Shown here piece by piece: positions 1 through 9,356 of a stretch of DNA of 9,356 nt. Under the pieces are notes generated by a model. That model made no database searches and was not told the DNA's origin. It saw only the letters and a program-made list of their open reading frames with translations. The position numbers and the translations under genes were made by a program. Position 1 is the first letter of the stretch, and each line of letters begins with the position of its first letter. Source of the stretch: a virus (lineage: Duplodnaviria > Heunggongvirae > Uroviricota > Caudoviricetes); IMG/VR virus record IMGVR_UViG_2778261065_000005; one strand, written 5' to 3'.

Positions 1-9
1 TATTAAGAC

Positions 10-29
10 TATCACTTATTTAAGTGATA
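10..29. promoter_or_regulatory. 20-bp perfect palindrome TATCACTTATTTAAGTGATA; candidate operator for a dimeric DNA-binding protein
   Basis: Read directly: 9-bp arms with a 2-nt centre, perfectly self-complementary. It lies in non-coding DNA about 130 bp beyond the operon terminator. No flanking U-tract on either strand, so it is unlikely to be a terminator. Confidence 0.3.
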
Positions 30-160
30 CTGGTTGTCTGGAGATTCAGGGGGCCAGTCTACTGACTGCACTGATTAACTACGTCACCAGCTCACAGATG
101 TCTATGCAGGATCTGCAAACACATCTCGACTATTGTGCCGAACAACTACGAAAACAAACC

Positions 161-208: not shown

Positions 209-349
209 TTATGACAAGCCTATGTATCCTGCTACACCAGATAATATCAAAATAACTGCAACAGCAAATTCGCCATCGTCAATGATACATTTACGGTTCA
301 TAACGCCAAGTGCAACAAGCGCAAACACAACAAGAATAAAAGCAATCAT
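209..349 (-). CDS. Candidate small hydrophobic (two-segment membrane) protein, 46 aa: MIAFILVVFALVALGVMNRKCIIDDGEFAVAVILILSGVAGYIGLS
   Basis: Hand-translated; too short for the supplied track. ATG at 347-349 is preceded on the minus strand by TAAGGATGAGAA (AGGA with a 6-nt spacer), directly after the TAA of the 824-aa gene and upstream of the terminator. Two hydrophobic stretches flank a short polar loop (NRKCIIDDGEF). Wobble positions are more AT-rich than in the large genes, so it is either acquired or non-coding. Confidence 0.35.
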   Translation of the reverse strand: MIAFILVVFALVALGVMNRKCIIDDGEFAVAVILILSGVAGYIGLS

Positions 350-358
350 TTCTCATCC

Positions 359-2833
359 TTATTGCGGAGTGACATCCTGTGGTCGCCACCAGTATGTCTG
401 GTTAAACTCTTTCTTCGAACGTTGCTCCATTTTACGCAAATAGCCTGGTGAAAAATACTCCTGCATCTGGTTAAAGATCATGTGATCGAGAGCCGCCTTC
501 AAGTACCAGAGATTCGCACCTGGCATCAGCCCCTTCCCCAGCTTAACCAGATCACCACCAGTCTGCTCATTCTTCCCTTCCACAGCATTTAACGGTATGC
601 CCTGAGCAATCTTCACTACGTCATCAACCAGACCAGCTACCGGGCCAAGCATCGACGCCAGCGCGCCGCTTCCGTACCTAGTGTGATCTGACAATAAAAA
701 GTCACCGTAAAGGCCAAGACCACCACCTTTCAGTAGAGCACCAAGCCAAAATTTAGCAGCATCTTCTCCTGTCATCTCGCGATGATTACGACCAGACGCA
801 AGGTCGTTAAGTTGCTGAGACAAAGCGCCAAGAATGGTCGTGCTGGCAATAAACGTCGCAATATATGCCGCACGCCCACCAGCAGACGGCATACCCATAG
901 CGCGTGACCAGTGACGCATAACCACCGAGATAGGGAACGATTTAAACAGGAAAACACTTCTCGTTAATTCACCTTTCCATGTTCCACGCTGAATACCAGA
1001 ACCGGTTATCAGTTGCTCACGTGCTCCCGGTGTAATAACAGCCATATCAACTTCTTCAGTTACGGCACCGAGCAGTTTACGCATTGCCTCAAATTTCACG
1101 CGTTCAGGCTCACCAAGATGTTTAACTGCTGAATCAGGGATACGCATAATGCTTTCCGGTGTCAGCATCGTATTATTACCGTTCCCCCAGTCCTCCTGTT
1201 GCGCCAGCTTCCATACGCTCCAGTCTGTGTCAGTAATCCCTTTGCTTTTCAGGATACGAAAATCAGAGTCATCGAGGCTACGAAGGTCTGGTGTCCGTGA
1301 CACTACTTCTCCCAGGCTTCCCATCATGGTTACGCCATAGGCGCGCTTGTGCGCATCTGACCATGCTGTAAGCCCACTGGCACGCATTACCGCCGTTGCA
1401 GCCCAACGAGACACTGACGGCCCCATATTATCCATCGCCCAGCGGTTAACGCTGCCAAGTAGAGATTCCATCGCCAGACCAGCGCGGCGCGCCCGCGCAA
1501 GCTCAGTACGGTTCGTTGGGTCCATAGCTTCAAGCTGGTTGCGGAATAACTGGTTCATTGGAAGGTTGGTCACCTTCGCAGACAGATACATGGTTCCAAG
1601 ATCAGAGAACGATGACAGCAACGCGGATCCGAGTCTGCTGGCAACCAGCCAGTTGCGGATATTGTCAGACCATCGCGCGATGTGCGGATTTGCTACAGGC
1701 TGTGTCTTTCCGGAAATAAAGTTGTACAGATTCTCTGTGTTGTTCGCCAGCCGCTCGACTTTACCGGTTTTACTCGGGTTAGCTGTTGCCGTTTCTGCCT
1801 TCACCTGATCAAGAAGAGAGCGGAAAACATGATCGGGGTTTGGGCCATATGTTTCCACCAGTGCAATATCTTTACTGATACCTTCCAGGTGACCGACCAT
1901 GATTTCCCATAGAGAGCGATCGCCATAAAGTTGCTGATATTGCAGATAGGAATCTGCATCTTTGAAATGTATCTGTCGTGATGCATTACCACGGTTAGCA
2001 CGTGCGCCGGAAATTCGCATTCCGGTATCAGTAAGCTTATTCAGCCCACCAGTAGCGATCGTGTTATAAGCCTCTCCAAGAAATGCAGACAACTCGGCAT
2101 CGTTCATCAGTTGTCCATCGGCTCGGATATAATATTTGCGATCCAGCTTACCTATAACATCGCTAACCCACTTATCCTTTGATACCGCCCCAACCTTTTC
2201 CATAGAATGATGTTGAGGGATCCCCCAGTTTTCGAGATAGCCAATGTCCCCACCAGCATCATTAAACCGGCGGCGCAGCAGCTCTGTAACTTCTCTCCAC
2301 GCCTTAGCACCTTTTCTTGCTTTAGCATTGCCAGTATTTTGCCCCCGCATTTCATATACCAGGTCACGTACGCCCGCTTCATCTTCAAACAGACCAAAAA
2401 AGCGAGGATCAACTGCTTCGAATGCCTCCTGCAATTGACTCAATGCATAATCACGGGTGGCTTTTGTTCTGGATTCAACAGAGAGGAAATTAGATTTACC
2501 GTCTGCATTAAAAGCTATAGTACGGTTAAGAGCGCCAAGTTTCCCATCAGCCCCTTGATAGCTATTGATAAATTTATCCAATCTCTGACGTGCAGCTATA
2601 GTGAGAGCCACACGACGTTTCTTTAATGCCGCTTCTCGCTGTAATTCTTCAGATGCCAATTGTGCTGCACGATACAGCCGCTCTGACTCGGAAAGTTGTC
2701 GCCACGACATAGGGTCATCACGAGCAATGGAGCGCATATTGCGATAAATGCGGTCTTCAATGTTCTGTATTTCTCGCGCCGTTAACGTGCGCTGCGCCGC
2801 CTGCTGGACCGCTTGTATACATTCCTGTCTCAT
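359..2833 (-). CDS. Large internal virion / ejection protein (824 aa)
   Basis: ATG at 2831-2833 with GAGAGG upstream, 5 nt after the stop of the 600-aa gene. Long uninterrupted frame ending at TAA 359-361. Gly-rich hydrophobic segments near the C-terminus (AAYIATFIASTTILGALS, FWLGALLKGGGLGLYGDFLL, GSGALASMLGPVAGLV). Last large gene of the operon. Confidence 0.8.
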   Translation of the reverse strand: MRQECIQAVQQAAQRTLTAREIQNIEDRIYRNMRSIARDDPMSWRQLSESERLYRAAQLASEELQREAALKKRRVALTIAARQRLDKFINSYQGADGKLGALNRTIAFNADGKSNFLSVESRTKATRDYALSQLQEAFEAVDPRFFGLFEDEAGVRDLVYEMRGQNTGNAKARKGAKAWREVTELLRRRFNDAGGDIGYLENWGIPQHHSMEKVGAVSKDKWVSDVIGKLDRKYYIRADGQLMNDAELSAFLGEAYNTIATGGLNKLTDTGMRISGARANRGNASRQIHFKDADSYLQYQQLYGDRSLWEIMVGHLEGISKDIALVETYGPNPDHVFRSLLDQVKAETATANPSKTGKVERLANNTENLYNFISGKTQPVANPHIARWSDNIRNWLVASRLGSALLSSFSDLGTMYLSAKVTNLPMNQLFRNQLEAMDPTNRTELARARRAGLAMESLLGSVNRWAMDNMGPSVSRWAATAVMRASGLTAWSDAHKRAYGVTMMGSLGEVVSRTPDLRSLDDSDFRILKSKGITDTDWSVWKLAQQEDWGNGNNTMLTPESIMRIPDSAVKHLGEPERVKFEAMRKLLGAVTEEVDMAVITPGAREQLITGSGIQRGTWKGELTRSVFLFKSFPISVVMRHWSRAMGMPSAGGRAAYIATFIASTTILGALSQQLNDLASGRNHREMTGEDAAKFWLGALLKGGGLGLYGDFLLSDHTRYGSGALASMLGPVAGLVDDVVKIAQGIPLNAVEGKNEQTGGDLVKLGKGLMPGANLWYLKAALDHMIFNQMQEYFSPGYLRKMEQRSKKEFNQTYWWRPQDVTPQ

Positions 2834-2838
2834 TTAAT

Positions 2839-4641
2839 TTAACCTCTCAAGAAACACGCCACAGCAACATCAAACAGGCTGGAATCCTGTATTGCCTGCT
2901 CACTTTCCCTGTTAGCTTCATCCAGTACTTCACGCGCACTGCGCGATTGTGGATTACCATCATCATCCAGCACGGTGATTATCATGTCAGGTGATTCAAG
3001 CAGCGAGTCTTCAGCTATACGCAGATCAATATCTCCTGCCGGATCTGCCATCATTTTTTGTTCTGTCTGTTGCAATATCTTACCGGGCTCAAAAGGAGCT
3101 ACTTCGTCTGGCGTCCTGACCTCTGCTGTTTTATAGAATGAAACAGCCTGAGCATTAAGTTCACTTTCTGCCTGCTGTCGCCGTGCCAGTTCTGCTCGAG
3201 CTTCAAAAAACTGACCTCCAGGCTCGTGCGGTGCCAACGCGTTACGGGAAAATTCCAGGCGTTCTTGTGCCTGCCGGATTCGTTGATCAATATCACGAAG
3301 TCTGGCCTGTTTATCTGATCGAGCACGAGACAAAGCTTTACCGCTACCGGTTGGCTCTTCTGCAAGAATTTGTGCACGCTGTTCAGTGAGATTTTCAATA
3401 ATTCGTTGGCTATTAGCGATTTCAGACTGGTAAACCTGTCTATCTCCACGCGGCAAAAGCTGCGCGGCCTGTTCTTCAAGCAACCGATTTTCTATAGCGC
3501 GCGCCGTTACTCCATCATCTACAGATGACAGAGCCTCATTAACTGCCTGAGACAGCAGACTCTTGCGCCCAGGAATTTCACTGAAAGATGCAGACTCAAC
3601 AATGCTGGCAACGTCTACAGGTCTCCCCTGGCTAACATCAGACATAGCTTTTCGCAGAGCCTGAATGTGAGAATTGCGCGAAAGCACGTTGATCGGCACG
3701 CCGGGCGCAATATCAATTTCAGCATGATGAGCGGCATTCGCCGCCAGTGCAGCATCAATATCAACTGGTGAAAAATTTGGTGCGCTTGTAGACTCGCCGC
3801 GAGAGTTAATAAATCTGCCGACACCACCAAACGCCACCCCAAGAACAGCATCAATAGCAATTGCCTGTCGATCCAACACATCATACTGGTTAGCCATTTC
3901 GCTATAGCCACCATCACGAAGCGTTTTTGCAGTAAGCCCACGCTGTGCCATACCGAACGCAATATTTGTACCTGCGGCATAGGCAATATCTGGCGTTGCA
4001 CTTACTGCTGTTGCTGCGGCGCGTCGCACTGAACTTTCACCCGTCCGCGCAAGCTGAGCCGCCACACCTTCCGCCAGCGCACCACCAGCACGTAACCCGA
4101 GGCTCATAGGGATCATTGTTCCGGCACCAGCAGTAATACCCTGCACTAATCCCGCTTCCTGCGCCGTCCTGAAATCAACACCCTGTGCTGTCAGCCGTTC
4201 AAACTCAGAAAAACCCTGTAGCGAAGTTACCGCCGCAGCACCTCCGGCCGGACCACCGAGCGTTGTACCGATAACAGCCTGCCCGCCCATATCGAACAAC
4301 CCATAAAGAACCTGCCCGGCGGTTCCGGTTGTCGCGGCATCAGGCGTCAGCCGCTTAACCTGCTGCTCTGCTAGTTTTCTCTGCTCGGCAATGTATGAAA
4401 CTGAAGTGTCATTGAGCGAGGTGTTTTCGTTAACAAACTGAGCAATCGGGGATACGATTTTATCCATCCCTGCCCAGAGCAACTGATCTGGCTTTGCCAC
4501 CAGCCCGGAGTACAAACCAGACAATGCCGCTCCTACAGCATTGTCGAAAAAACCAACATCGCTGTTAAAGCCAGCTGGATTTGATGCTGCTTCGTCAAGC
4601 TGCTGATTCTGGTTTACTGGATTAAGGCCAAAGTAACTCAT
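2839..4641 (-). CDS. Internal virion / ejection protein (600 aa) with Gly/Ala-rich hydrophobic segments and a charged C-terminal helical region
   Basis: ATG at 4639-4641 in an ATGA overlap with the upstream stop; GGAG about 10 nt upstream. The N-terminal half has repeated small-residue hydrophobic stretches (GGQAVIGTTLGGPAGGAAAV, ITAGAGTMIPMSLGLRAGGALAEGVAAQLA, IAIDAVLGVAFGGVG) typical of membrane-inserting segments. The C-terminal third is E/R/Q-rich and likely coiled coil. Confidence 0.8.
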   Translation of the reverse strand: MSYFGLNPVNQNQQLDEAASNPAGFNSDVGFFDNAVGAALSGLYSGLVAKPDQLLWAGMDKIVSPIAQFVNENTSLNDTSVSYIAEQRKLAEQQVKRLTPDAATTGTAGQVLYGLFDMGGQAVIGTTLGGPAGGAAAVTSLQGFSEFERLTAQGVDFRTAQEAGLVQGITAGAGTMIPMSLGLRAGGALAEGVAAQLARTGESSVRRAAATAVSATPDIAYAAGTNIAFGMAQRGLTAKTLRDGGYSEMANQYDVLDRQAIAIDAVLGVAFGGVGRFINSRGESTSAPNFSPVDIDAALAANAAHHAEIDIAPGVPINVLSRNSHIQALRKAMSDVSQGRPVDVASIVESASFSEIPGRKSLLSQAVNEALSSVDDGVTARAIENRLLEEQAAQLLPRGDRQVYQSEIANSQRIIENLTEQRAQILAEEPTGSGKALSRARSDKQARLRDIDQRIRQAQERLEFSRNALAPHEPGGQFFEARAELARRQQAESELNAQAVSFYKTAEVRTPDEVAPFEPGKILQQTEQKMMADPAGDIDLRIAEDSLLESPDMIITVLDDDGNPQSRSAREVLDEANRESEQAIQDSSLFDVAVACFLRG

Positions 4642-7151
4642 TGCGGAATATCTCCGGAGAATCTCTGACGCTTCTGTGTCAGATCAAGAACAACGGGAGA
4701 ACCATCATCTTTTAGCAGATAACCAGTACCAAGTTTCACCAGGTACTGACTATCGCCGTAACTTTGCAAACCATACTGACCAGGCGGTGTTTTTATCCCT
4801 GTGCCAACAACTTGTTCATTCCAAGCCTGATTAACCTGCTTATCGAATTGCTCTGCAGACATTCCCCACGGCAAAAGAACATTCCCCATTCCGTTATAGT
4901 CATGCACGCCACCTGTAGCTACGTTAACAGCCTGTTTCCAGATATCATTGTCAATTTCGCCTGATACCACGCCTTTTTTCGCCATCACACCAGCGTAATA
5001 GTCCTTTGCGATCTCGTATGCCATTGATGCCCCCTGAGCATCACCAGCAAATGCATCCTTCACCATGTCAGAAAACTCAAGGCGGAGATCAGCATCTTTA
5101 GGCATCGGAATACCTTTCGCGTCATCAGTACCTTTACGAGCCGCCGCGCCAGCAAGAATTGTCTGCGCAGCGGTTTCAGGAGACACGGAAACATCCGGAT
5201 TAAACCAGTTTTTTTCTGCCAAAATACCACCTGGCTTATCCATCAGTATCCCGGCAACGGCAGCAGATGGAGCGTTGGCACTGATCTGCTGTAGTGCTGA
5301 CATATACACCTGCCCACCACCAGTGCTCTGCCTGATGGTATCGAGATATGCTGCCTGTTGGGAAACGGGCGCATCACGAAAGAAAACACCGATCTGATTG
5401 GCCTCGTCTTTGGAAAAGAACGTCAGTGGAGTGCCATATGACTTAGCAAGGTCACTGACCTGAGCAGCACGCAAGGCAACGCTCTGTCCAAAGTTATCCT
5501 TATTGCTCATGTCGATAGGCTTTGCCTGTCCGGCGGCAAGAGAGAACTGTACAGGATCAGCCTGTCGCTGCTTTATCACCTGACTTGCAGCCGACACAAC
5601 GTTGTCATAAAGAGCGGCTCGTGCCGCATAACCCTCCCCTGTCTCACCAGTATCCGGGCGTAATTGCTCAACATATGCTGTAATGCTGCTTGTCGGCATG
5701 TTGCGGAAAGAGCCTATATACTGTCCGGCGATTTGCGTATTTCTGAACTCGGTATATCGCAGTTTTCCTTCTCTGACTCCATAAGCTGCAATAAAATCAG
5801 CCTCACCAGGTGGGTTAGGAAATTCAACGCCACGCATATACGCAGCTGTCGCATCGCGAACCTGGCTGTCAATCATCGTTTTATATTCAGCCTGCTGCTG
5901 CCGACGCAGTTGATCCGCCTGTCGCATAAAACTTGCCTGCGCCTCAGGAGATGCCGCATCGAATGCTGCATTACCGGTATAGCGTTTGGTGTTGGTTGGA
6001 ATTGTTGATAAACCAAGTGCTGCACTGACACCAGCAGTTAACTGCTGATCACTGTATGGCTGGCTACCGTTCTCATGATGGATAATGGCTGCACAAAGCG
6101 CCTTCAGGGTATCAGGATTAGATGCATCGAGAGGCTCATCAGCAGAAACGCCAAGTTGTTCGCACACTGCTTTGATATACGACATAGTGTCATTTTTATC
6201 AGTAGGCGGTGCCCAGCGATTAATTATCTCGCTGACGGTATCAATACCCTGCCTCTGATACGACATCAGGTTCCGCCCTAATGCACGAATCCCGTGTTCA
6301 GGTGTTTCGAATTTAGCAAATCGACCATCATCACCGGTCTGGCCTACCCACGGATTAGTTTTGCTGTATTCGAGATTTCCTGGGTTATTGTTGCGTATGC
6401 CACGGGCACGCTCGGAAGAGTCACTATCTGCTACAGCACGGCGAGCTCCAGCAGCAGTATCGCTTAACTCGCCATTACTTTGGATAAATGAGATCGCATT
6501 GTTTGCCGACCACTGGGACAATGCTGCATCAGCAACCTTCTCTTTAAACTCGATTTTCTTGGCCTGTATTTGCTCGTCGCTCCAGCCATGTGCAGCACCG
6601 TACTCCTCAATTTGCTGGAAAGTTTGCTTATTAGCCAATACGTATGCGGCATTGTCGCCATACAATGCTGCGGCATTTTTACCATTGTTCAGCAGCGTCG
6701 CCTGAAACTGACCTTCTTCGTAGGCATTTATTTGCCCTATCTCGTGCCGCCCGGCCTGCGTAGTGAACTGAATACGCTGCTGCTGCGCCTGCTGCATGAA
6801 AGCATTACGAGCCTGTTCATCCGGCAGCGACATAGCCAGTTGTTCGATCTGAGCATCAAACTGCTGCGTATACTCCTGACCTTTTCCAATAGCATTTTTC
6901 CCTTTCAGGTTAAGCAAACCTGTTTCAGGGTTATTCAGCAGATCGCTGCCTGTCTGACTGAGTTTAAGGGATGCCTCCTGAGCCAGAGCGATATTGGCAC
7001 GCTGTTTTGCCTGACCAAAAACATCAATTGTCTCTGCCCCTGCCCGAACAAAAGCATCACCAATACCTGGCTGAGAAAACGTCTGCAAGCCTGCTGACTG
7101 AACTCCACGGCTCTCAACCTGACGTCCGGATACTGTTGGTACGACTGGCAT
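4638..7151 (-). CDS. Large internal virion / ejection protein (837 aa), with a conserved-looking central block
   Basis: Long open frame. The track ORF (862 aa) starts at GTG 7226 and would overlap the upstream gene by 76 nt. The internal ATG at 7149-7151 has a strong Shine-Dalgarno (GGAGGA, 5-nt spacer) and forms a TAATG junction with the upstream stop, so I call the start at 7151. Stop TGA overlaps the next ATG (ATGA). Q-rich helical N-terminal region; distinctive block RGIRNNNPGNLEYSKTNPWVGQ...HHENG. Confidence 0.8.
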   Translation of the reverse strand: MPVVPTVSGRQVESRGVQSAGLQTFSQPGIGDAFVRAGAETIDVFGQAKQRANIALAQEASLKLSQTGSDLLNNPETGLLNLKGKNAIGKGQEYTQQFDAQIEQLAMSLPDEQARNAFMQQAQQQRIQFTTQAGRHEIGQINAYEEGQFQATLLNNGKNAAALYGDNAAYVLANKQTFQQIEEYGAAHGWSDEQIQAKKIEFKEKVADAALSQWSANNAISFIQSNGELSDTAAGARRAVADSDSSERARGIRNNNPGNLEYSKTNPWVGQTGDDGRFAKFETPEHGIRALGRNLMSYQRQGIDTVSEIINRWAPPTDKNDTMSYIKAVCEQLGVSADEPLDASNPDTLKALCAAIIHHENGSQPYSDQQLTAGVSAALGLSTIPTNTKRYTGNAAFDAASPEAQASFMRQADQLRRQQQAEYKTMIDSQVRDATAAYMRGVEFPNPPGEADFIAAYGVREGKLRYTEFRNTQIAGQYIGSFRNMPTSSITAYVEQLRPDTGETGEGYAARAALYDNVVSAASQVIKQRQADPVQFSLAAGQAKPIDMSNKDNFGQSVALRAAQVSDLAKSYGTPLTFFSKDEANQIGVFFRDAPVSQQAAYLDTIRQSTGGGQVYMSALQQISANAPSAAVAGILMDKPGGILAEKNWFNPDVSVSPETAAQTILAGAAARKGTDDAKGIPMPKDADLRLEFSDMVKDAFAGDAQGASMAYEIAKDYYAGVMAKKGVVSGEIDNDIWKQAVNVATGGVHDYNGMGNVLLPWGMSAEQFDKQVNQAWNEQVVGTGIKTPPGQYGLQSYGDSQYLVKLGTGYLLKDDGSPVVLDLTQKRQRFSGDIPQ

Positions 7152-7696
7152 TATAATCCTCCAGGTAATCTGGTTCCTGCTGCTGCCCCGATTGGCGCAG
7201 GAGTGCTTTGAGTAAACGGACTCCACGTCCCACCAAACATCTGGTACGCACCGTATGCCTTCAGAGGCGCAGTGAGCAATGTTGTTGCTGCTCCCACATT
7301 CCCCTGTTTACGGGCTGAACTGGCTTCTGCTTTATAGTTAGCAGCCTGAACCTGATAACCGTAAGCCTCGCGTTGCGCGTTATTCACCGTCGTCAGCGAA
7401 TCAAGGGCGCCAAACTGAGCAGTGTCACCAAATATATCCAGCGCGTTACCTGTAGATAAATCGGCGCCGGTCGCCCCCATTGTCGCCGCCTGTGTACCAA
7501 GCCGCTGTCGGGTCTCTCTGCGCCGTTGCTCAGCTTCAGCGTTACCCCTATTTATTGCATCATTTGCCTGAGCTGTGGCTATATCTGCGTTCGCTTCTGC
7601 AACCTTCGAGGCATACTTTCCCTGTTGGTACTGGGTGTATGCCTGAATGCCACTCATGGCGAGCATTGCGCCACCAGCAATAACCGGATCGCACAT
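7151..7696 (-). CDS. Ala/Gln/Gly-rich small internal virion (core) protein, 181 aa
   Basis: ATG at 7694-7696 preceded by GGAGAG. Low-complexity A/Q/G-rich composition beginning MC..., of similar length and position to the small internal virion protein (T7 gp14-type) of podoviruses. Stop TAA at 7151-7153 overlaps the next ATG (TAATG). Assignment is from composition and synteny, not a verified alignment. Confidence 0.7.
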   Translation of the reverse strand: MCDPVIAGGAMLAMSGIQAYTQYQQGKYASKVAEANADIATAQANDAINRGNAEAEQRRRETRQRLGTQAATMGATGADLSTGNALDIFGDTAQFGALDSLTTVNNAQREAYGYQVQAANYKAEASSARKQGNVGAATTLLTAPLKAYGAYQMFGGTWSPFTQSTPAPIGAAAGTRLPGGL

Positions 7697-8160
7697 TATT
7701 TTCTCTCCATGTGAAATCTGTGGAAATTAAGACCAAGAGCACCATAAGGCGCGGCTTCTTCAAGCCTGAATCCAAGCCAGTGGAGCCATGCTTTGGCAAC
7801 ATGGTTTCGCTCGTCGACGTAGTTTTCCAGGCGCGGATAAACTGCCAGCATCTGCCGCAATACAGGGTGGCAGTGGCGAAGAAATGTCTTCTGATATTTT
7901 TCAATACGGCTGGTCCCGACCAGCCAGGGCGTACCATTGCCACCGATCATTGACGCCGGAGATACACCAAACATGGTTACCAGTTCTCCGTTCGCGAACC
8001 CTGACCAGGCCATAGTCGCAGTGCGCAGACCAACACGCAGCGCATCTTCGGTAGTCATCAGCGATACCGCATACAGTTCGTCAATATCAGCCTGACGAAC
8101 ATCCGGCAAAATCATCTGAAGATGCTCTTCGGTTGCGGGAATAATTTGAACACCAATCAT
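7696..8160 (-). CDS. Phage virion-associated protein of unknown function (154 aa)
   Basis: ATG at 8158-8160 preceded by GGGGGA with a 5-nt spacer. Start overlaps the upstream stop (TGATG) and the stop TAA overlaps the downstream ATG (TAATG), indicating translational coupling. Size and position match the small protein that precedes core proteins in podovirus clusters. Function not assignable by eye. Confidence 0.75.
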   Translation of the reverse strand: MIGVQIIPATEEHLQMILPDVRQADIDELYAVSLMTTEDALRVGLRTATMAWSGFANGELVTMFGVSPASMIGGNGTPWLVGTSRIEKYQKTFLRHCHPVLRQMLAVYPRLENYVDERNHVAKAWLHWLGFRLEEAAPYGALGLNFHRFHMERK

Positions 8161-9356
8161 CAGAATCCCCCAACAGTAAGGCGAGGAATAACGGCAAGAA
8201 CAGACAGCGGCAACGGATCAAGCTGACGGATTTTTACACGTCCGTTTTTGCCCCAGTTACTGTCCAGTTTCACTTCTACTTTTCCGGTAGCATCATCAAC
8301 AGGATCATCGTAGAACTCGAATTCACGCTGTGGATATTCGTACCATTTACCGCCGGGCGTAGTCGCCCAGATGCCGCGGCTGGCATTCACAACCAGAGTA
8401 ACGGATGGGATCACCTGTTTTTTGTCCAGCAGCGTTTCCTGTCCGTTAATGTTGATATCCAGTGTTTCGAATTCAGCAGTTATTGGCAGGCCGATGTGCA
8501 CTACAGCCCCCGGAGATTCCAGCGTGACGGCACCTCCGGAAACCACTTTCTGTGGTTCCACGTTCGCATCAGAGAGAATGTTTACGGTCTGGCCTTCAAG
8601 ATGAGACAGGCCTCCAAATGTCCGGCGCGCCATCTGCCAGTTCGTGGTGGCCACATTCCTGAGGGATGGCGGGACGTTCCTGTTAGCACGAACCACTACA
8701 GCGGTATTGCTGGTTACAGAAATAATGTCGCAACGTAATTCTTTTGACACTTCATCGCCAGTATCAGGATCAGTTCCGGTATAAGGGAATTGTAGTTGCG
8801 CACCGACATCACTACTGGTGAAGTACGCACCACCAGAAATACTGATTGTATATTCCACGCGGTAATCCCATTCACCAGAACCACCAGTGATGGTCATCGT
8901 TCTGTCAGACGTATTTCTTCCATCATAGCTAAGGCCAGAATCAACAAAGAAAGCATCTTCATCGCTGGTAAATAAACGGCTGGACAGCCGCTCGATGTAT
9001 CTCACTGTTTGCCCGTTAACGGTTCGGTTAACGACGAAATACACCGCATCTTCATTTCCTTCGCTGATACTGCATGTGCTTTCATATTTTCCGGTACTGG
9101 ACTGTGGTGCCCATGCAAAAACCTGTTGATCACGCAAATAGGTCATCACCAGTAATTTACCGTCATCACGAATGCAGAAGGCGCTGGAGTAAGGGACAAT
9201 AGAGAAGCACCAGTCAACAATGCTGTGCTTCTGAAAAAGATGATTGGCAAGGATAGTAAGGTCGTTCCCCTGATAGCCGTCAACATCGAATGAGTAGATA
9301 CTGTTATGGCCTGCAAGTTTTTTTCTACCCTGGTTTCCCAGATTGCAGGCATGCCA
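8160..9356 (-). CDS. Phage virion structural protein, partial (5' end lies beyond the window; at least 398 codons here). Possibly a tail hub/nozzle-type protein by position.
   Basis: The frame of the listed 329-aa ORF (8160..9149) stays open with no stop codon up to the window edge at 9356, and reads as ordinary protein (WHACNLGNQGRKKLAGHNSIYSFDVDGYQGNDLTILANHLFQKHSIVDW...). The track ORF begins at GTG 9149 only because there is no start codon further upstream inside the window. Stop TGA at 8160-8162 overlaps the next ATG (TGATG). Product is a guess from position immediately upstream of the core-protein genes. Confidence 0.7.
   Translation of the reverse strand, partial: WHACNLGNQGRKKLAGHNSIYSFDVDGYQGNDLTILANHLFQKHSIVDWCFSIVPYSSAFCIRDDGKLLVMTYLRDQQVFAWAPQSSTGKYESTCSISEGNEDAVYFVVNRTVNGQTVRYIERLSSRLFTSDEDAFFVDSGLSYDGRNTSDRTMTITGGSGEWDYRVEYTISISGGAYFTSSDVGAQLQFPYTGTDPDTGDEVSKELRCDIISVTSNTAVVVRANRNVPPSLRNVATTNWQMARRTFGGLSHLEGQTVNILSDANVEPQKVVSGGAVTLESPGAVVHIGLPITAEFETLDININGQETLLDKKQVIPSVTLVVNASRGIWATTPGGKWYEYPQREFEFYDDPVDDATGKVEVKLDSNWGKNGRVKIRQLDPLPLSVLAVIPRLTVGGF

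Follow-up and report, generated by a model that had tools for sequence, protein, structure and literature searches.

The endolysin (ORF39) of phage Enc34 has a catalytic domain that is solved as PDB entry 7Q47 and belongs to the family PHA02564, and that lyses E. coli, P. aeruginosa and Hafnia once their outer membrane is permeabilised (PMC8943055). Its fold is all-helical and distantly like the alpha-lobe of lysozyme, having a permuted core without a beta lobe, and its groove is lined by the catalytic Glu131 with Trp79 and Tyr95 (PMC8943055), which are named as the key residues of Enc34 (PMC8943055; PMC9502842). The related M4Lys domain, from Salmonella phage BSPM4, degrades purified peptidoglycan, and bifunctionality (glycosidase plus endopeptidase) has been suggested for it (PMC7143992). 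The Enc34-like fold and the conserved Trp, Tyr and Glu were previously shown also for the P5-like proteins of PM2-like phages (PMC9502842). As for lysins carried in virions, T7 depends on the transglycosylase domain of gp16 to bring its genome in where the murein is highly cross-linked, and the gp15-like protein is the carrier of lysin activity in K1E and K1-5 (review PMC8954989). Here we report on the gene for an 837-amino-acid (aa) protein in a stretch of viral DNA of 9,356 nucleotides (IMG/VR record IMGVR_UViG_2778261065_000005; the whole stretch is called the window below), for which an earlier reading of the sequence had proposed a peptidoglycan-degrading domain in an internal virion protein. 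Our analysis confirms that the motif block in question is a real Enc34-type domain, with all the family-defining features that could be tested being present. Overall, the reading that we regard as quite probable is an Enc34-type glycoside hydrolase domain in this protein with the block as its catalytic core, the protein being a virion-borne enzyme which cuts the cell wall for entry.

The window is, judging from its similarity to known phages, a segment of a Uetakevirus prophage, i.e. of an epsilon15/phiV10-type podophage. By megablast it shares 98% DNA identity over 99% of its length with Escherichia phage phiV10 and close relatives, while Salmonella phage epsilon15 is a more distant relative. 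The 837-aa gene is PhiV10p18 by position and length, and its protein is 59% identical to epsilon15 gp15. The original prediction placed the block at 6057-6401, and these coordinates are right, with the correction that the gene lies on the minus strand. Read on that strand, 6057-6401 gives GIRNNNPGNLEYSKTNPWVGQTGDDGRFAKFETPEHGIRALGRNLMSYQRQGIDTVSEIINRWAPPTDKNDTMSYIKAVCEQLGVSADEPLDASNPDTLKALCAAIIHHENGSQP, the very peptide that had been quoted, at residues 251-365 (GIRNNNPGN...HHENGSQP) of the 837-aa open reading frame (ORF); the translation of the interval runs GIRNNNPGNLEYSKTNPW...AAIIHHENGSQP. On the plus strand the same interval translates into a frame with stops. Two plus-strand ORFs over the block, 6075-6281 and 6361-6705, are treated as spurious shadows of the minus-strand gene.

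The family of the block is seen first from sequence searches. With phmmer against PDB, query residues 249-398 match chain residues 3-146 of 9vvp_L ('Gp29', 1295 aa) with an expect value (E) of 3.9e-38 and ~55% identity, and residues 249-367 match 7q47_A ('Endolysin', the Enc34 catalytic domain) with E 2.7e-17; no paper behind PDB 9VVP was found in literature searches. Among the PHROGs families, a 155-residue domain segment matches phrog_873 and phrog_1044 ('endolysin'), phrog_7182 ('tail injection transglycosylase') and phrog_2276 ('tape measure'). The matches to phrog_873, phrog_992 and phrog_1044 have E values of 1e-21 to 1e-69, and phrog_992 matches the 837-aa protein over its full length. 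Neither the whole protein nor the domain hit any family when scanned with Pfam and NCBIfam, and for the 837-aa protein no Pfam entry was found at E<=1. Both libraries are without a model for the Enc34-type family, so that these negative scans are not evidence against an enzyme. On the whole, the profile and sequence searches do lead to an enzymatic fold, that of the Enc34-type endolysin family, through PHROGs and PDB though not through Pfam or NCBIfam.

Structure prediction and fold comparison, which had been named beforehand as a way to check the block, give the same answer. The AlphaFold2 (AF2) model of the domain has a predicted local distance difference test score (pLDDT) of 87.9, and Foldseek finds one significant match to it only, 7q47, with E 2e-11. 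The predicted domain superposes on this active enzyme at 1.5 Å. In the model it is all-helical and lysozyme-alpha-lobe-like, with a long alpha1-alpha2 loop replacing the beta-lobe. The AF2 models also show that the folded domain exceeds the reported block, since an extra C-terminal helix at residues 368-378 is included. Thus the domain was rightly located inside the 837-aa protein, but its limits are residues ~249-379 and not 260-400. As to other lysin families, no lysozyme-family Pfam model matches the 837-aa protein, and no similarity to GH73 N-acetylglucosaminidases (FlgJ / TM0633 type) was found, either structural or in sequence. Membership of the T7 gp16-type SLT / GH23 family was rejected at the family level, there being no SLT Pfam match and T7 gp16 being absent from the PDB sequence matches. 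The domain is therefore regarded as a third, separate family that presumably does the same job as the lysins of T7 gp16 (SLT) and phiKMV gp36, the separation from phiKMV gp36 being made by Pfam only.

Conservation was analysed with an alignment of 58 sequences (A1), consisting of the window domain and 57 diverse database homologues. Invariant in this alignment are G270, F281, G287, R289, A290, Y298, A314, P315, Y325, E360 and G362, and conserved in at least 90% of the sequences are G251, R253, N254, N256, P257, G258, N259, W268, W313, N320, T322, N361 and P365. The block had been singled out for invariant-looking Asn, Pro, Gly, His and Glu positions. Conservation in the alignment bears this out for Asn, Pro, Gly and Glu, whereas His is not invariant across the family. 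Homologues that conserve the block number in the thousands, and the three proposed catalytic residues are included in this conservation. The residue equivalences were taken from the HMMER alignment to 7q47_A, in which the chain index is the native numbering + 1; the Enc34 residues Trp79, Tyr95 and Glu131 are spaced by 16 and 36 residues, and their counterparts are listed in Table 1. By this alignment the domain, which is inserted between helical regions, has a single putative catalytic glutamate, E360, flanked by W313 and Y325.

What chemistry such an active site would perform can be argued from the characterised relatives. It is unlikely, in our opinion, that the domain is a lytic transglycosylase (non-hydrolytic, with a 1,6-anhydro-MurNAc product) and not a hydrolytic N-acetylglucosaminidase, and this would concern the chemistry only, leaving the role unaffected. 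In GenBank epsilon15 gp15 is called 'putative lytic transglycosylase' on the strength of HHpred matching it to SltB, many other phage records agree with this name, and the Kayfunavirus homologues are annotated 'peptidoglycan lytic exotransglycosylase'; Enc34 itself relies on one catalytic Glu and distantly resembles GH23 enzymes (PMC8943055). The published Enc34 and M4Lys work, on the other side, favours N-acetylglucosaminidase, which by analogy would be the specificity of the window domain too.

Identity to epsilon15 gp15 varies along the protein, with 76% for residues 1-246, 85-87% for the domain, 76% for residues 378-540 and 25% for residues 541-837. The block itself is 87% identical, and the N-terminal 540 residues otherwise have 68-90% per 40 residues. 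On these sequence comparisons, the block is within the genus only modestly better conserved than its N-terminal surroundings, and it stands out at greater distance, where it is the only shared part. These figures, together with the active site, bear on the notion that catalysis has been lost, the domain surviving in the ejection protein only to bind peptidoglycan or to serve a purely structural purpose. The notion has some ground, as virion lysin domains are often dispensable in the laboratory, that of T7 gp16 being needed only conditionally (PMC8954989), and catalysis by the 837-aa protein is putative. Yet the domain is the best-conserved segment against epsilon15 gp15, all 11 family-invariant positions as well as W313, Y325 and E360 are intact, and the predicted fold superposes closely on an active enzyme, which makes a dead remnant less likely still than a transglycosylase.

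The setting of the gene points to virion proteins. On the minus strand, the order is the tail tubular B-like gene, the gp13-like gene, the gp14-like gene, the 837-aa gene, the 600-aa gene, the 824-aa virion structural gene and a gene for a 46-aa two-helix membrane protein, and the order around the 837-aa gene agrees with epsilon15 and phiV10. The 837-aa gene lies directly downstream of the gp13-like and gp14-like genes in the structural operon, which is where a member of the ejection set is expected. A GGAGG Shine-Dalgarno sequence sits 7 nucleotides upstream of its ATG. At the upstream junction the stop of the gp14-like gene overlaps its start (TAATG), and at the downstream junction an ATGA overlap couples the 600-aa gene translationally to it; from these overlaps at both ends it follows that the gene is translated within the internal virion gene block. 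By a 19-residue Kyte-Doolittle hydropathy scan (maximum 1.02) the 837-aa protein is without a transmembrane segment or signal peptide. phiV10 has its own lysis cassette elsewhere in the genome, with the holin p28, the GH19-like endolysin p29 and Rz/Rz1 spanins. This separate cassette, the lack of a membrane or secretion signal and the place in the internal virion gene block together make an entry enzyme the most likely role. The Kayfunavirus gp16 leads to the same result. In the protein of phage PE3-1 (1295 aa), residues 125-1294 align to T7 gp16 152-1314 with 1300 bits, but the counterpart of residues 3-122 is the Enc34 domain, and 9VVP Gp29 is a Kayfunavirus protein of this PE3-1 type; since the Enc34-type domain stands here in place of the T7 SLT domain, a virion-borne wall-cutter for entry is most likely. 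A lysis role instead, in which the domain would be the lysis enzyme of the phage or an additional such enzyme and would attack the wall from inside when infection ends, is highly improbable and is rejected: most characterised family members are indeed endolysins in lysis cassettes (Enc34 ORF39, M4Lys, JBD69 gp25), but phiV10 has a complete cassette apart from this gene, and the domain is internal to a protein without transmembrane or signal segment, the gene of which is coupled in translation to those for internal virion proteins, and in Kayfunavirus this domain stands in for the T7 gp16 entry lysin.

Therefore, the suggestion of the original prediction, a peptidoglycan-degrading domain in an internal virion protein, is supported by the Enc34-type family match, the conserved catalytic residues and the position of the gene after a T7 gp14-family gene. 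From homology and gene position we infer that the 837-aa protein is an active enzyme which is packaged, ejected and put to work at entry, where it would cut a glycan bond, with N-acetylglucosaminidase as the favoured specificity. In the mechanism we propose, the virion would contain the packaged protein alongside its other internal (ejection) proteins. At infection it would follow the gp14-like protein out through the tail and reach the periplasm. Its domain would then cut murein glycan strands locally, so that the ejected proteins may build a trans-envelope channel for the DNA. By analogy, it most likely does at entry what T7 gp16 does with its N-terminal SLT domain, which is unrelated.

Several points weigh against the wall-cutting entry enzyme and should be kept in view. 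No experiment on the 837-aa protein or on its epsilon15 and phiV10 orthologues was found in the searchable literature, and activity, packaging and the entry role rest on homology and gene position. One review names gp17 alone as the epsilon15 core, while another paper places epsilon15 gp15 in the packaging/injection device, and the literature on the location of gp15 in the particle is thus unsettled. Bond specificity is disputed as well, with reports and annotations that say N-acetylglucosaminidase, muramidase, endopeptidase or lytic transglycosylase. Regarding the rest of the carrier, its flanks were compared with T7-type gp15 by hhalign of shallow profiles, which gave a probability of 0.1 and so no homology at the sequence level. 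A Foldseek search with the low-confidence full-length model lists the T7 gp15 chains 7k5c_A, 6yt5_A, 9jyy_G and 7eyb_A next after 7Q47, but these matches are weak, with E 5e-3 to 7e-2 and template modelling (TM) scores of 0.12-0.16. With hhalign negative and the Foldseek matches weak, we do not claim that the carrier is a T7 gp15 homologue. Finally, the prophage is bracketed by insertion-sequence ends, and therefore the window copy may never make particles.

The finding is correct and is in fact already known, because PhiV10p18 is annotated as 'head protein; similar to structural protein P5 from Alteromonas phage PM2' and the epsilon15 orthologue carries the transglycosylase label given above. 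What is added here is the precise family, the catalytic residues with their coordinates, the argument from domain displacement and the gap in the profile libraries. For epsilon15/phiV10-type phages, a cell-wall-cutting domain on an internal virion protein is confirmed and its family is named. The coordinates of the domain, its key residues and the surrounding genes are collected in Table 1.

Table 1. Positions in the window of the lysin domain, its proposed active-site codons, its carrier gene and the neighbouring genes
Feature	Position	Strand	Basis and remarks
Enc34-type (PHA02564 / PM2 P5-like) peptidoglycan glycosidase domain (predicted)	6015..6407	-	residues ~249-379; block 6057-6401 is the core
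N-terminal signature RGIRNNNPGN, residues 250-259	6375..6404	-	near-invariant in A1; motif also in Enc34 and Kayfunavirus Gp29
W313 codon (INRWAPP), equivalent of Enc34 Trp79, substrate-positioning aromatic	6213..6215	-	7q47_A alignment; conserved at >=90%
Y325 codon (TMSYIK), equivalent of Enc34 Tyr95	6177..6179	-	7q47_A alignment; invariant in A1
E360 codon (HHENGS), equivalent of Enc34 catalytic Glu131	6072..6074	-	7q47_A alignment; invariant in A1 and A2
Predicted disordered linker ahead of the domain, residues ~219-248	6408..6497	-	AF2 pLDDT <50 for residues 219-251
Carrier gene, 837 aa	4638..7151	-	ATG at 7151, stop 4640-4638; homologue of phiV10 gp18 / epsilon15 gp15
T7 gp14-family internal virion (outer-membrane pore) protein gene	7151..7696	-	Pfam PF24072 T7_gp14 E 2.5e-07, above gathering score; phrog_418 'internal virion protein'
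gp13-like internal virion protein gene	7696..8160	-	phrog_308 'internal virion protein' E 6e-62; Pfam T7 Gp13 weak, E 0.047
600-aa gene, homologue of epsilon15 gp16 / phiV10p19	2839..4641	-	phrog_1145; position
824-aa virion structural protein gene, homologue of phiV10p20 / epsilon15 gp17	359..2833	-	phrog_684 'virion structural protein', full-length match
46-aa protein with two strongly hydrophobic helices, phiV10p21 equivalent	209-349	-	closes the structural operon

Outside the domain, the carrier is modelled with less confidence. Every one of the 120 matches listed in a full-length homologue search was a near-identical E. coli prophage protein, and because the search yielded no deep alignment, the full-length AF2 model made from a shallow alignment is only moderately reliable (pLDDT 65.8), its C-terminal 300 residues being not interpretable. 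The model consists of long helices at residues 30-241, a disordered linker, the lysin domain, which is confident, a helical region at residues 395-540 and a poorly modelled C-terminus. At this moderate confidence it agrees with the earlier remark that the block is distinct from helical surroundings, with the flanks predicted helical and the linker at 219-251 disordered. A common E. coli prophage allele (P0122, 935 aa) is 95-99% identical to the window protein and has in addition an insert of ~100 residues. The insert (residues 243-346; …GNINLFNRPSVKNEDGTISTVRTISIG…) falls between query residues 242 and 249, which is window ~6408-6425, in the linker. It has no Pfam or PDB match, and its sole family is phrog_19413, which is unannotated. 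A rather doubtful proposal is that the ejection protein at the gp15 position is a modular enzyme carrier in which the linker at ~219-248 is a hot spot for cassette swaps, the domain itself being maybe bifunctional (glycosidase plus endopeptidase). Such a hot spot would explain that the Enc34-type domain and the ~100-residue insert are found at the same point.

Some features of the neighbouring genes should also be described. The 824-aa gene is presumed to be the last large gene of the ejection-protein block. The 46-aa and 600-aa proteins are, by their hydropathy, candidates for the membrane-inserting parts of the ejection machinery; the 600-aa protein has one hydrophobic stretch only, at residues 260-279. 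The epsilon15 orthologue of the gp13-like protein is annotated as a GNAT acetyltransferase, from HHpred. A GNAT acetyltransferase is conserved also in the PM2-like phages with the same lysin domain (PMC9502842), possibly by coincidence.

Both ends of the window carry mobile-element sequence. Window 1-60 is not phage DNA but the end of an insertion sequence; 4,590 of 5,426 E. coli genomes contain it, at 19,661 places in all. Apparently this is IS2 with its terminal inverted repeat, as a transposase of the IS2 family is annotated under the joined match. The end interrupts a phiV10p24-like gene, the C-terminal part of which is at ~61-166 on the plus strand. This p24-like fragment runs straight into a bidirectional terminator hairpin GGCCGCGAAAGCGGCC at 173-188, and at window ~166-210 a phiV10 segment of ~1 kb (1750-2650 in phiV10), with a Bro-N antirepressor-like gene and a small ORF, is missing. 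At the other end, position 9297, which falls within the tail tubular B-like gene, is the last to resemble phiV10, and the last 59 bases (9298-9356) match the end of a multi-copy element which has 6-18 copies in three E. coli genomes and adjoins an IS110-family transposase. The break in similarity together with the mobile element suggests that the tail tubular B-like gene is probably interrupted and that the prophage in the window may be a defective one. Its 837-aa gene with the lysin domain is intact.

We then present an overall view of the family. In a profile search with A1 over clusters at the 50% identity level (1.84 billion representatives), the block profile finds 18,932 clusters at E<=1e-3 and 13,447 at E<=1e-10. 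The proteins are of three architectures: ~140-aa single-domain proteins, ~220-aa proteins with a C-terminal extension, and proteins of 600-1700 aa with the domain N-terminal or mid-protein. Among annotated phages, the domain is found in chivirus and Seuratvirus endolysins, in P5-like proteins of small PM2-like (Vinavirales) genomes and in large internal virion proteins of Autographiviridae. For example, Pseudomonas phage JBD69 gp25 is a stand-alone 138-aa endolysin with the domain and adjoins an Rz-like spanin, and Burkholderia phage AMP1 (Okabevirinae, Ampunavirus) has the domain at the N-terminus of a 1665-aa internal virion protein. The tblastn matches include NO16-like genomes and Vibrio genomes of Autolykiviridae size. 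The best profile match, a metagenomic protein of 762 aa (P0241), is matched along four separate stretches and apparently carries the lysin domain in four tandem copies. In addition, the N-terminal part of the Stenotrophomonas rhizophila type VI secretion effector Tae5 is reported to resemble the Enc34 endolysin (PMC13340143), a likeness by which the family may also serve as an interbacterial toxin. No precomputed Pfam domain is present on any database homologue listed. Of 5,426 complete E. coli genomes, 327 have the 837-aa protein under the RefSeq name 'hypothetical protein', which is due to Pfam and NCBIfam being without a model for the family. This is a very large family to have no Pfam/NCBIfam model, and a curated one would mend thousands of annotations. 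The domain is moreover a candidate for a small, soluble lysin active on Gram-negative bacteria.

Compared with the known systems, the window gene is the same gene as epsilon15 gp15 and phiV10 gp18. It differs from epsilon15 gp15 in that the C-terminal ~300 residues are strongly diverged and in that the window copy is in a prophage bracketed by insertion-sequence ends. Enc34 ORF39 and M4Lys are of the same family, but here the domain is internal (249-379) in a soluble 837-aa protein encoded in the midst of internal virion genes, and lysis has a cassette of its own. By sequence, the nearest relative with a solved structure is the Kayfunavirus gp16-like protein (9VVP Gp29; PE3-1 PE3_042), which is of the same family and likewise an internal virion/ejection protein of a podophage. 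In Kayfunavirus, however, the carrier is a true orthologue of T7 gp16 and the domain stands at its very N-terminus, while here the domain is in the middle of a protein at the gp15 position, and this latter carrier has no detectable sequence similarity to T7 gp15 or gp16. The N-terminal SLT/GH23 domain of T7 gp16 has the same presumed job, virion-borne murein cleavage on an ejection protein encoded after gp14, yet it differs in family, and the Enc34-type domain takes its exact place in Kayfunavirus gp16. The K1E / K1-5 gp35 (gp15-like, with lysozyme activity) also carries a lysin on the gp15-position protein and not on gp16, the likeness being one of architecture only. PM2 P5 and its Vinavirales homologues have the same domain with the same conserved Trp/Tyr/Glu and are structural (virion) proteins too (PMC9502842), but the PM2-like phages are tailless and membrane-containing, and the protein is small and no podophage ejection protein. 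On the whole, the family illustrates clearly how one lysin module is shuffled between entry and exit: it occurs in the protein described here at the gp15 position, as the N-terminal part of gp16 in Kayfunavirus and Ampunavirus, as a stand-alone endolysin and in the tailless PM2-like phages.

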